64,000 bases of DNA from Siniperca chuatsi (lineage: Eukaryota). The translations under genes and the position numbers were made by a program. This document shows positions 53,844 through 56,278 of the stretch, one piece after another (the first letter of the stretch is position 1; each line of letters opens with the position of its first letter). Where the stretch lies: NCBI RefSeq assembly GCF_020085105.1, contig NC_058054.1, positions 6,931,595-6,995,594 on the forward strand, written 5' to 3'. The notes below the pieces were generated by a model, which ran no database searches, was not told where the DNA came from, and saw nothing but the letters and a program-made list of their open reading frames with translations.

Positions 53844-53915
53844 CAAAAACCAGCGTTATTCGGTGGGATGTTCAAAAGATCCTTCAAGTCTGCAGAGCCA
53901 TCTGTCCAAGCACAG
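53844..53915 (+). CDS. unidentified repetitive-protein gene, exon (pair 1a): QKPALFGGMFKRSFKSAEPSVQAQ; possible start at internal ATG
   Basis: acceptor ctcattcag|, donor CAG|gtgatg; phase 0-0; polybasic G-MFK-x-SFK motif. Confidence 0.5.
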
Positions 53916-54171
53916 GTGATGTTGTAGTATTAACGTCCTTTCATTTAAATCTAGAACTTAACATTAAATGTATTATATAAGCTAATACACTGATAAAATC
54001 TTGCTTTTCATGAAAAACTCACTGTTGAATATTAATCACTGATGTTAAATATATTAAATATTAATATGTAAGATGTTTACCCGTACTTTGTTGACGTGTA
54101 CAGCAATAAAATTACAATATGCACTATTTGATTCTGCATCTGCTCACATGGACTCTGTGTTGACTTTACAG

Positions 54172-54237
54172 GACAGTTCATCAGCCAGCGGTGAACTTTC
54201 GAAGAGAAACGATAGCCTGACTGACAACAGCACCAAG
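54172..54237 (+). CDS. unidentified gene exon (pair 1b): DSSSASGELSKRNDSLTDNSTK
   Basis: anchored on ORF 54073; acceptor tttacag|, donor AAG|gtgatg; phase 0-0. Confidence 0.55.
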
Positions 54238-54325
54238 GTGATGCTCAGGAAACATTTCTGTAAATTCTGTGGTATAAATAAGTGATTTTTTAGCATGTAG
54301 ACTGACTTATTTAATAATATTTCAG

Positions 54326-54394
54326 GAAAAAGAAGGCGTGTTTAAAGGAATGTTTAAGAAGACGACCAAAACTGCCAAAGAGGGCCAGCCACAG
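54326..54394 (+). CDS. unidentified gene exon (pair 2a): EKEGVFKGMFKKTTKTAKEGQPQ
   Basis: acceptor atttcag|, donor CAG|gtttgt; phase 0-0. Confidence 0.55.
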
Positions 54395-54599
54395 GTTTGT
54401 CATGGCCTTCTTTGAACTTCGTGTGCTGTACATCTTGTTGCTTATTCTTTTTAATTTTACTGATATTTAACTAGAACTGAAATGATTATTCGATTAATCA
54501 ATTAGTTGATCAACAAAAGATTAGTGAACTATTTGACAGGTAAAATGTGGTGTTGTGTTATTTCAGTAAGAAGCTGACAGATAATCTTGTGTGTTTTAG

Positions 54600-54662
54600 G
54601 ATCTTTTGGACAACAAACTCACAGCCAGTAACGACAGTCTGTCTGAAAACATCGCAACTAAG
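54600..54662 (+). CDS. unidentified gene exon (pair 2b): DLLDNKLTASNDSLSENIATK
   Basis: acceptor tgttttag|, donor AAG|gtgagt; phase 0-0. Confidence 0.55.
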
Positions 54663-56038
54663 GTGAGTCACAGCAGCCAAATCATTTTTTTTAAATGCAA
54701 AAACTTTCAAAAACACAAACAACTGGAAACAAATACAAACAAAATACAAAGTCTTGTGATGCTTCTACAAGCATTTTGTTCTTAACAGCTCTTTTTAAAC
54801 ATCTTTATTAATAAAACCATTGTACATCAATCAGAGATCATAGCTTGAACATAAGGCAGGACAATTACATACCAGAATAAGACTCAGAATGAATACAATA
54901 GATACAGTATAACCAAAACTACACAAAACCTAAAAACCATGATAGTAATTATAAAATATATAGAATAGAAACATAAAGAAATAAGCAAATTAATTAAATA
55001 AAATGATGTTTGACATTTGGCAGTATGAATTCCATGTTTTTAAGACTCTTTCAATGAATTCTCCATGGGAATGCTTGTTTATTTATTTATAATTTTTTAT
55101 TACTTGTTTTATGTCCCAGTGTGGGTACTGTATATGATGTGAGGTTTTTGTTTGTTTCTGTGTTGTGTGAGTTCACCAAACCAGATTCCTATCAATTATG
55201 TTGAAATGGCAATAATGTATTGAATCTTGAATTTGATTTATGTATGTGAAATTTGCCCAAAAATGTAATCAAATTGGTCTCTTGGTATCTTTTTGAATGG
55301 GTTGATTCTAGTCAAAGAAAGCAATAATAATAATAATAATATCTTTATTTATATAGCACGTATCAAAACAAATTTACACAGTGCTTCACATAGCAAGCAG
55401 AGAACACATAAAACATAACATAAAAACAAATAAAACACAGCAGTAATAGAATACAAATATTAAACGAAACACAATAAATAAGAAAAACTAGAATCAGATG
55501 AAATCAGGGAAGGCGGTGCGATAAAAGTACGTTTTAAGCCTAAATTTAAAAGAAGCCACTGACTCAGCCTGTCTCTGTTAGTAAACTGTTTTCTGTGACC
55601 AAAGTCACCTAAATATCTCTTAAAATCATTCCAAAACACATCACTTCGTGTGCAACGGAAGTTGTTTTTTAGGACAAAAAGCTACTGTACCAAACACTGA
55701 GTGTTAAACATTGTTGGGTTATATCAAGTTGGTATTGAGAGATTTCGCTCTAAAAGAATATTTAGTTCTTCTTAAGTTTCGACTAGTGACATATGTTGGT
55801 GAATCTGATTTTAACCTACTGTAGGTGTGTAGACTTCGACTCAGTTTGGGAAGGGTGTGTTTTTGTTTTTGTGGGTGTTTGGAAGCGCGAGTTAAACCTG
55901 CATGCATCAGCAATTTGGAAGAAGTGCTGGTCAGTGTGTGAAGCACTAAATCCCTGCCTGTCCATCTGACAGCTGCATCTGTTCAAAATACAAAATACTT
56001 ATACAAGTAACATGTATAAGTAAACTTTTTTTTCCCAG

Positions 56039-56110
56039 GAGACAGGAGGGATGTTCAGTGGGATGTTTAAAAAATCTCCAAAGCCATTTGGAGGAAGGAC
56101 ACAACCTCAG
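56039..56110 (+). CDS. unidentified gene exon (pair 3a): ETGGMFSGMFKKSPKPFGGRTQPQ
   Basis: acceptor ttttttcccag|, donor CAG|gtgaga; phase 0-0. Confidence 0.55.
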
Positions 56111-56209
56111 GTGAGAGTTGTGCGTCTCACTTGTCTCTCTTTTACCTGTGTTACATTATTAGGAAATGATAATAATAATCGGTAGGGGGTGTTTGTTTCT
56201 TGCATTTAG

Positions 56210-56278
56210 GAGGATTTTTCTGCACCCAATGAGCTCTCAGGCAGCAACGACAGTCTGTCTGTGAATATTAACACTAAG
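56210..56278 (+). CDS. unidentified gene exon (pair 3b): EDFSAPNELSGSNDSLSVNINTK
   Basis: acceptor gcatttag|, donor AAG|gtaagg; phase 0-0. Confidence 0.55.

Follow-up and report, generated by a model that had tools for sequence, protein, structure and literature searches.

A teleost repeat family encoded by alternating mini-exons in an ApoL-domain gene of Siniperca chuatsi

Repeat exons at the locus

The window analyzed here is a stretch of 64,000 nucleotides (nt) of contig NC_058054.1 of Siniperca chuatsi, fish-like eukaryotic DNA with a GC content of about 0.33–0.45. Six short exons between positions 53844 and 56278 encode two alternating types of peptide and are coding exons 3–8 of a teleost ApoL-domain gene, which is named 'apolipoprotein L, 1' in other fish. 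The gene lies on the + strand, directly downstream of TEP1. An earlier note, made from the sequence alone, had described these exons with exact coordinates and with peptides identical to the translations obtained here. All six are 63–72 nt long, begin after a polypyrimidine/AG acceptor, end at a GT donor and have phase 0-0. Type A exons encode ..G-x-F-x-G-M-F-K-K/R.., and type B exons encode ..E-L-S-x-S/R-N-D-S-L-S/T-x-N-x-x-T-K. A seventh member of the repeat, a lone B exon, was found beyond them at 56640–56702. The repeat exons are given below with their identity to counterparts in the relatives P0006 and L002.

53844..53915 (+), repeat exon A1 (QKPALFGGMFKRSFKSAEPSVQAQ), type 1; 83% identity to the first A exon of P0006; charge +3
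54172..54237 (+), repeat exon B1 (DSSSASGELSKRNDSLTDNSTK), type 1; 87% identity to B1 of P0006 over 15 residues
54326..54394 (+), repeat exon A2 (EKEGVFKGMFKKTTKTAKEGQPQ), type 2; 83% identity to A2 of P0006
54600..54662 (+), repeat exon B2 (DLLDNKLTASNDSLSENIATK), type 3 of relatives; full-length match including the DLLD start
56039..56110 (+), repeat exon A3 (ETGGMFSGMFKKSPKPFGGRTQPQ), type 4; 75% identity to A4 of P0006
56210..56278 (+), repeat exon B3 (EDFSAPNELSGSNDSLSVNINTK), type 4; 74% identity to B4 of P0006
56640..56702 (+), lone repeat exon B4 (DDLSADGELSARVSLIEKPSK), last B type; 59–64% identity to the last B of L002 and P0006

Same-type exons resemble each other far beyond chance. 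Local alignments of their DNA gave z = 3.5–15.2 against shuffled sequences, with z of about 0 for A versus B, and their peptides gave z = 3.3–9.2 (A3 versus B3, z = 0.1). A repeat search returned exon-centred pairs of 38–57 nt with 73–75% identity that end at splice junctions; B3 and B2, for instance, are 75% identical over 57 nt. The self-comparison proposed in the earlier note, which asked whether introns are duplicated too, found no similarity between the introns separating the repeat exons in the window (z ≤ 1.3). Of the refuting outcome that the note named for this comparison, half applies: the introns show no repeat at the DNA level, but the likeness of the exons goes well past chance. 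The alike introns and flanks that mark a recent segmental duplication were accordingly not seen in the window, and they were seen in Megalops. The earlier note had read the locus as a threefold tandem duplication of an exon pair. This holds in so far as the A/B pairs are paralogous and are real exons, a unit of the tarpon being duplicated at 94% identity, but a threefold tandem duplication in this genome is not supported, the date and the direction of change being different. Nor is the arrangement as uncommon as had been proposed, exon arrays of this kind in disordered regions being fairly ordinary.

Gene model and ApoL identity

Searched alone, the six-exon peptide gave just 5 weak or fragmentary matches, and a full gene model was therefore needed. 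One of the five was L002, a Logan contig of 4190 nt that represents a spliced mRNA of another fish. It contains six A/B pairs joined without introns; a lengthy stretch of low complexity comes next, and the protein closes with a Pfam ApoL domain at its C-terminus (E = 1.9e-36). With L002 as a guide, the gene was modeled as 22 exons from an ATG at 51443 to position 63769, encoding 452 residues. The modeled exons are all of phase 0 and 48–87 nt long, and their borders are canonical with the exception of one GC donor.

The 452-residue model matches 83 proteins, most of them with the Pfam ApoL domain (PF05461). The best match is the Seriola dumerili protein 'Apolipoprotein L, 1'/LOC111231114 (E = 1.4e-117, 74% identity), and the remaining matches, from many teleosts, are labeled 'apolipoprotein L1' or 'uncharacterized'. 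The N-terminal arm of the model is collinear, in the same exon order, with L002 and with the Seriola protein (P0008), and the Megalops orthologue likewise carries an ApoL domain (E = 9.8e-39). Between the window exons and L002 the ratio of nonsynonymous to synonymous substitution (dN/dS) is 0.22 over 251 codons, and the differences fall on the third codon position 103 times, on the first 39 and on the second 45 times. The low ratio and the third-position excess therefore indicate coding constraint in this frame. It is almost certain that the six stretches are genuine coding exons of an ApoL-type gene. The earlier note had named as refuting that transcripts never include these exons; transcripts of relatives do contain them.

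The exons of the model outside the repeat array are as follows.

51443..51445 (+), start codon, end of exon 1; ATG then gtgagt; joined to exon 2 it reads MDRYDDLDLECDGGG, matching MERYDNLDLDLECEGGGG of L002
51613..51660 (+), exon 2, acidic N-terminus (DRYDDLDLECDGGGVA); tblastn with the L002 protein; AG/GT, phase 0
56854..56904 (+), exon 10 (GEVAAKILKNPFTSSSQ), NPF motif; matches GGVAAKILKNPFTSSSQ of Seriola P0008
57025..57099 (+), exon 11 (DKEKTQHSGDSNENTSTTEKPKDKQ); tblastn with L002; AG/GT, phase 0
57265..57312 (+), exon 12 (NGFSAMMKSVFHTDKQ); tblastn with L002; gene model
57528..57596 (+), exon 13 (EKNTDSDCEETLDNGEGQASHKQ); tblastn with L002; gene model
57723..57773 (+), exon 14 (SKPPGAMTKLNPFRSAK), NPF motif; tblastn with L002; gene model
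57866..57931 (+), exon 15 (YEKQAGDEDPPASSEKSSGNKQ); match to Seriola P0008
60079..60156 (+), exon 16 (VKSNMIQRERKERNEMPPVPPRPTEE), PxxPxR motif; tblastn with L002; paralogous to exon 18
60268..60327 (+), exon 17 (EMKGISTYDKVKPRGTEYNQ); tblastn with L002; gene model
60608..60688 (+), exon 18 (DYKDMISREKKAKPAETPVVPARPSEE), PxxPxR motif; comparison with P0008; sub-threshold p47_phox_C match, E = 0.067
60818..60871 (+), exon 19 (ELNRAARRGLQKQKSHHQ); gene model; comparison with P0008
62191..62277 (+), exon 20 (SQSDDESLKKDESAEAKEGGEANSPESKT); gene model; comparison with P0008
63181..63237 (+), exon 21 (TMVKKHKHRNPFMPQAAAK), NPF motif; tblastn with L002; gene model
63716..63769 (+), exon 22 (GKVIQRQAQGGAAGNTDE), last in the window; corresponds to GKVIQRHTQDEAEGNNAE of Seriola P0008, where the ApoL domain follows

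The exceptional donor is that of exon 10 (56905–56906), apparently GC (CAG|gcaatt) and the sole non-GT donor among the 22 exons.

A repeat family across teleosts

The repeat unit comprises about 46 residues and is composed of an A half and a B half, each on its own 63–72-nt phase-0 exon. The consensus of half A, EKGGxFSGMFKKSPKP, is basic and aromatic with a net charge of +3, while that of half B, DDLSxxSELSASNDSLSENxxTK, is acidic and Ser-rich. A unit profile was built from 30 aligned A+B units and searched against 1.84 billion representative proteins. It matched 103 proteins at E ≤ 1e-3 and 33 at E ≤ 1e-30, a single protein being matched in as many as 16 places, and all of the seven top matches scanned (7/7) contain an ApoL domain. 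The 30 matches that could be named are all teleost proteins of the ApoL family except for one weak nematode match, which we take as chance. Named carriers include moray eel, halosaur, sardine, catfish, smelt, salmonids, cod, sole, puffer and medaka, so that the span runs from eels and tarpon through percomorphs. No mammalian protein was found with the profile among the representatives.

A local hmmsearch scan identified 881 units in 190 proteins (592 unique units; three units in the window protein) and gave the whole-unit consensus EKGGxFSGMFKKSPKP-(about 8)-QDDLSxxSELSASNDSLSENxxTK. Proteins of the 'apol1'-type group, to which the window gene belongs, have 600–900 residues and 0–8 units; the orthologues counted in the scan carry 4–8. 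A paralogue group ('apold1a' in NCBI, 'si:rp71-1g18.13' in Ensembl) has 1100–1700 residues and 10–14 units. In the 30-unit alignment, conservation reaches 90% or more at seven positions (G4, G8, K12, K15, S34, S36 and L40), which are still the top columns across the 592 unique units, at 60–75%.

The repeat peptide matched no Pfam family at E ≤ 1, and the whole arm, searched against Pfam at E ≤ 10, returned nothing but a weak p47_phox_C match outside the repeats. Literature searches with the gene names apold1a and rp71-1g18.13 and with the motif strings found no paper, and the repeats are not mentioned in the zebrafish apol1 kidney papers or in one paper on APOL evolution. The repeat family is previously undescribed in the searchable literature and lies inside annotated yet uncharacterized fish genes. 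A repeat-rich fragment from Cottoperca gobio (P0063) carries the precomputed annotation PF26369.1, which was not reproduced with the local Pfam. A lead to BCAS1, taken from an old NCBI name of the guppy orthologue, was abandoned, the unit profile scoring negative against the human BCAS1 sequence.

Unit orthology and losses in the Siniperca genome

Each window exon is nearer to its positional counterpart in other percomorphs than to its neighbors in the window. The counterpart type of A3, ESGGxFSGMFKKSPKP.., varies most in copy number, with three copies in P0006 and four in Tautogolabrus, and that of B3, EDLSAP.ELSGS.DNLSVN.NTK, is present in 3–4 copies in P0006 and Tautogolabrus. P0006, Tautogolabrus and Anabas each have a third B exon that begins, as B2 does, with DLLD... 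The second pair of the window is chimeric, a type-2 A exon being followed by a type-3 B exon, and a type-2 B and a type-3 A are therefore missing here. Sensitive searches of 51–57.2 kb found neither the type-2 B (..LQNP.LSASSDSLT..) nor the type-3 A (EKSGxLGGILKR.PKPGHARRPSQ). The gap between A2 and the type-3 B exon (54395–54599) measures just 205 nt, whereas relatives hold one further exon of each type at this place; this points to the loss of one B+A pair from this lineage by an in-register deletion.

The last A exon (EKGGIFGGVFKKK..) was not found between 56279 and 56639 in sensitive searches. A GIFS..F peptide (GGC ATC TTT TCC) is encoded at its expected site, at 56437, but as a possible decayed relic of the exon it lacks statistical support: the alignment with the Tautogolabrus exon gave z = 0.1, and the last A exon of L002 aligns to a different, A-rich spot (z = 4.3). 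The array thus counts 3.5 units in this species (three pairs and a lone B), compared with 6–8 in relatives. Very probably, then, the window array is the remnant of an ancient array that evolves by gain and loss of units, and not the product of a recent triplication.

Duplication and exon skipping in relatives

In the tarpon Megalops (L004), units 1 and 2 form a tandem repeat with a period of 441 bp and share 94% identity across 269 nt of exon A, intron and exon B; since the identity includes the intron, whole A-intron-B units duplicate. Tautogolabrus contains four type-4 units with a period of 320–400 bp, whose A exons are 81–91% identical and whose similarity extends into the sequence flanking the B exons. 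The A and B halves occupy separate, alternating exons at the window, Megalops, Tautogolabrus and Coryphaenoides loci, and their alternation in these relatives indicates that the exon design arose before eels and tarpon diverged from the remaining teleosts.

All exons are of phase 0, so that gain, loss or skipping of a unit preserves the reading frame. In the predicted isoform sets that NCBI gives for Anabas, Osmerus and Oncorhynchus, the variants are set apart by exactly one A exon, one B exon or 1–3 whole units. Among these predictions, Anabas isoform X6 skips a single A exon, the orthologue of A2, isoform X2 of rainbow trout differs by one B exon, and the smelt apold1a isoforms differ by one to three whole units. 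We hypothesize that the array of Siniperca would likewise expand and shrink by unequal recombination of A-intron-B units, and that its copy number would also be trimmed by skipping of symmetric exons with the frame intact; both processes are seen in the relatives. In L002 an extra TCAG (4 nt, at about 540–560) at one B/A junction breaks the frame into open reading frames of 152 and 853 residues, and looks like an acceptor used 4 nt upstream or an assembly error.

Properties of the arm and proposed function

AlphaFold2 modeling of the 30-unit alignment gave a mean pLDDT (predicted local distance difference test) of 62 and no secondary structure, and the arm is therefore predicted to be disordered: the gene product would carry an intrinsically disordered, repetitive N-terminal arm. 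An amphipathic-helix reading of GGMFSGMFKK was rejected, as AlphaFold gives no helix. The A exons have a net charge of +3 and contain 2–3 Phe and a Met, and the B exons have a net charge of −1 to −3 and contain 4–9 Ser/Thr. A basic-hydrophobic scan, run with our own implementation of the scale and with a MARCKS control sequence, placed the three highest peaks of the arm in A exons (0.55–0.62), exon 21 equaling the lowest of them (0.55).

About half of the units contain the A core [ST]-P-K-P, with Ser followed by Pro in 52%, which as a motif reads as a proline-directed kinase context and not as one for protein kinase C (PKC). For the B exons the earlier note had suggested a CK1/CK2-type phospho-site cluster. 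The minimal CK2 consensus S-x-x-D/E is present in B1 (SLTD), B2 (SLSE) and about 60% of units, and is absent from B3 (SLSV); 42% of units have S in column 39, and 61% have E or D in column 42. Judged at the level of the motif, a CK1/CK2 phospho-cluster is a possibility.

Farther along the arm, two PxxPxR motifs were found in exons 16 and 18. Proteins of the endocytic machinery bind NPF motifs through EH domains, and PxxPxR is a ligand of SH3 domains. The three NPF motifs of the arm (KNPFTSS, LNPFRSA and RNPFMPQ) lie in separate mini-exons at 56854–56904, 57723–57773 and 63181–63237 (+), and orthologues carry further NPF copies. Exons 16 and 18 are paralogous (z = 7.9), a second internal duplication, and both contain P-x-V-P-x-R-P-[ST]-E-E; their downstream neighbors, exons 17 and 19, are not alike (z = 0.3). 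The shared motif bears a weak resemblance to the SH3 ligand of p47phox (PF08944), which is proline-rich. Membership of these exons in the p47phox C-terminal domain family was rejected, every score staying below the cut-off of 27 bits (13 bits for the window gene, 25 bits for salmonid orthologues); the likeness is one of resemblance only.

Tentatively, we propose that the arm is a multivalent, charge-tunable membrane tether. Each A half would act as a weak basic-hydrophobic patch on acidic membranes, often with a Ser/Thr-Pro site, and each B half would be an acidic, phosphorylatable counter-patch, its phosphorylation weakening membrane binding. Units in series would form a multivalent tether whose strength could be tuned by charge, and the tether would place the C-terminal membrane-inserting ApoL domain on target membranes or withhold it from them. 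The NPF and PxxPxR motifs would connect the arm to trafficking proteins. More speculatively still, the A/B unit could be a teleost-wide, phosphorylation-tuned regulatory module of intracellular ApoL proteins, with NPF and SH3-ligand motifs downstream and a copy number set by evolution and splicing. Taken as a whole, this explanation of the locus seems to us rather likely, the gene and its ancient array being much better supported than the tether function, which by itself is less likely than not.

Several observations weigh against this explanation. With regard to function, a single A motif reaches about half the basic-hydrophobic score of MARCKS and no more than borders on the threshold; AlphaFold gives no amphipathic helix in the units; and Pfam holds no family for the repeat. 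Some annotated orthologue models, such as that of Seriola, contain no units at all, which implies that the arm may be dispensable or isoform-specific. The confinement of the profile matches to teleosts may come partly from sparse sampling of non-teleost fish. As for completeness, the window ends at base 64000, after exon 22, and the ApoL domain of this gene is expected farther downstream; the transcript evidence consists of contigs of relatives.

Alternative explanations

That the exons are chance, unexpressed open reading frames is practically negligible as an explanation: it could draw on the foreign origin of the transcript evidence, but the exons are collinear in the spliced transcript contigs of relatives, are under purifying selection and have canonical splice sites. 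A recent, lineage-specific triplication would fit the occurrence of three tandem A/B pairs within 2.4 kb. It is highly improbable given that the introns are dissimilar and the exon DNA merely 73–75% identical, that the exons are nearer to their positional orthologues (75–87%) than to their window neighbors, and that relatives hold more units, not fewer.

Three further explanations concern function. The A and B halves could be docking motifs for trafficking, cytoskeletal or kinase/phosphatase partners, with the array as a multivalent scaffold. The strong conservation of the glycines and the S-P-K-P core, more typical of docking motifs than of charge patches, the predicted disorder and the presence on the same arm of three NPF and two PxxPxR motifs, both classic docking motifs, are consistent with this. 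No known motif class fits, however, nor does any Pfam family, and the endocytic gamma-ear, AP2 and clathrin-box motifs mismatch the unit consensus; we consider the scaffold, the main rival, possible but doubtful and about as probable as the tether. A charge-patterned spacer or a condensate-forming polyampholyte, in which length would matter and motifs would have no specific role, agrees with charge blocks that alternate between +3 and −1 to −3, and with a copy number that varies (0–8 in orthologues, 10–14 in the paralogue) and units that are freely skipped in isoforms. Residue order, and not merely composition, is nevertheless kept from eels to percomorphs, and together with the dN/dS of 0.22 this makes such a role unlikely. 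The earlier note had likened the A motif to the effector domains of MARCKS and adducin, which are PKC substrates that bind calmodulin and phosphatidylinositol bisphosphate. Phe and Lys/Arg clusters with Ser between them do recall such domains, FKRSFKS of A1 resembling part of FSFKKSFK of MARCKS. As a statement of family membership the claim fails: there is no match to a MARCKS-family Pfam entry, the net charge is +3 compared with about +13, the basic-hydrophobic score is 0.55–0.62 compared with 1.19, and 52% of units have Pro directly after Ser, a context that PKC disfavors. A genuine effector domain of this type is accordingly very unlikely, whereas MARCKS may serve as a loose functional analogy, that of a basic and aromatic membrane patch.

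Comparison with known systems

The closest relatives of the window gene are its teleost orthologues, the 'apolipoprotein L, 1' proteins of Seriola dumerili (A0A3B4TRX0/LOC111231114), Megalops (MATL_G00251830) and Anabas (LOC113172247, X1–X8). They share with it the order of acidic start, A/B units, NPF exons, PxxPxR exons and KKHKHxNPF exons, and after the arm they continue into a C-terminal Pfam ApoL domain. Unlike these orthologues, which have 0–8 units, the window gene has three pairs and a lone B, with one B+A pair and the last A missing. Their database names are automatic, and the repeat is mentioned in none of them.

The long paralogue 'apold1a' (Sardina XP_062386586, Osmerus XP_062338500, Oncorhynchus LOC110508496) has the same A/B unit and the same ApoL domain, and differs in its N-terminus (MEQC..KKKPKPPKP), its long charged C-terminal tail and its length of 1100–1700 residues. 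It adjoins the apol1-type gene in at least the tarpon, and a moray eel has two such genes side by side. Human APOL1–6 and APOLD1 have the membrane-inserting ApoL domain family (PF05461) in common with the orthologues of the window gene; they differ in that the unit profile matched no mammalian protein. The zebrafish apol1 used in kidney studies is a short locus of 2.6 kb for which repeats are not described (PMC4492502).

Likeness to the MARCKS effector domain is limited to an unstructured stretch of Lys/Arg and Phe with a phosphorylatable Ser nearby, and the mode of action could possibly be similar. In contrast to MARCKS, the A motif is far less basic, has Ser-Pro, matches no such family and occurs in many weak copies instead of one strong one. 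As to exon design, repeats encoded by two alternating exon types are known from tropoelastin, with its hydrophobic and cross-linking exons, and from the PEVK region of titin. The arm shares with these the small, symmetric, alternating exons, the lineage-specific gain and loss of pairs and the skipping that keeps the frame. The sequences are unrelated, however, the fish protein is putatively intracellular and membrane-associated, and its units are far shorter, and fewer than those of titin. The architecture is of a familiar kind, and the repeat family itself is real and well defined.

Significance

ApoL proteins matter in human kidney disease and innate immunity, and the targeting of their membrane-damaging domain is poorly understood. 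Fish ApoL genes serve as models, with little consideration of their architecture. The main teleost ApoL genes bear a conserved repeat arm of variable copy number, a defined region for manipulation. The same arm explains wrong automatic names such as titin homolog, dao-5-like, claspin-like and BCAS1 homolog. For genome biology it is a clean yet unsurprising case of repeat evolution via symmetric mini-exons. Should the units indeed form a regulatory module, it would control the place and time at which a membrane is engaged by the ApoL domain with its pore-forming or detergent-like action, and fish would provide a natural dial for studies of the targeting and restraint of ApoL toxicity.

Neighboring features and ApoL gene clusters

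TEP1 (telomerase protein component 1) lies upstream of the ApoL gene; its final exons, encoding a WD40 beta-propeller, occupy 40740–48207 (+) and end with ..GKLYFLSWKE. An open reading frame at 47410–47646 matches PF25048, the TEP-1 C-terminal beta-propeller (E = 1.1e-14). The tilapia model P0059 fuses the TEP1 C-terminus to the ApoL gene, which fits conserved synteny. Within the 2.1-kb intron between exons 15 and 16, a frame of 220 codons at 58518–59177 (+) shows a weak, below-cut-off match to RVT_1 (E = 6e-4) and is probably a decayed retroelement.

Near the start of the window, frames at 2790–3504 (−) encode an N-terminus rich in Pro, Tyr and Gln (..SSFDDKTVRRGFVKKV..) and, after it, a hydrophobic stretch. 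The product looks like a lifeguard/TMBIM-type protein, but these fragments gave no Pfam match at E ≤ 0.01. Longer minus-strand frames at 12844–13152 and 14310–14897, encoding for example ..RCPFCSKPFPGGRIEDHLLSCLTSPPLPYN.., had no Pfam match and suggest another gene.

In relatives, ApoL-domain genes are clustered, as seen at 15300–15476 of L004 and at 1–1356 and 19493–22424 of L001. A second ApoL gene of the tarpon, of 1128 residues, begins 2.8 kb past the apol1-type gene, and two repeat-rich ApoL genes of a moray eel have adjacent locus tags. In Coryphaenoides, ApoL genes flank the repeat exons on both sides.

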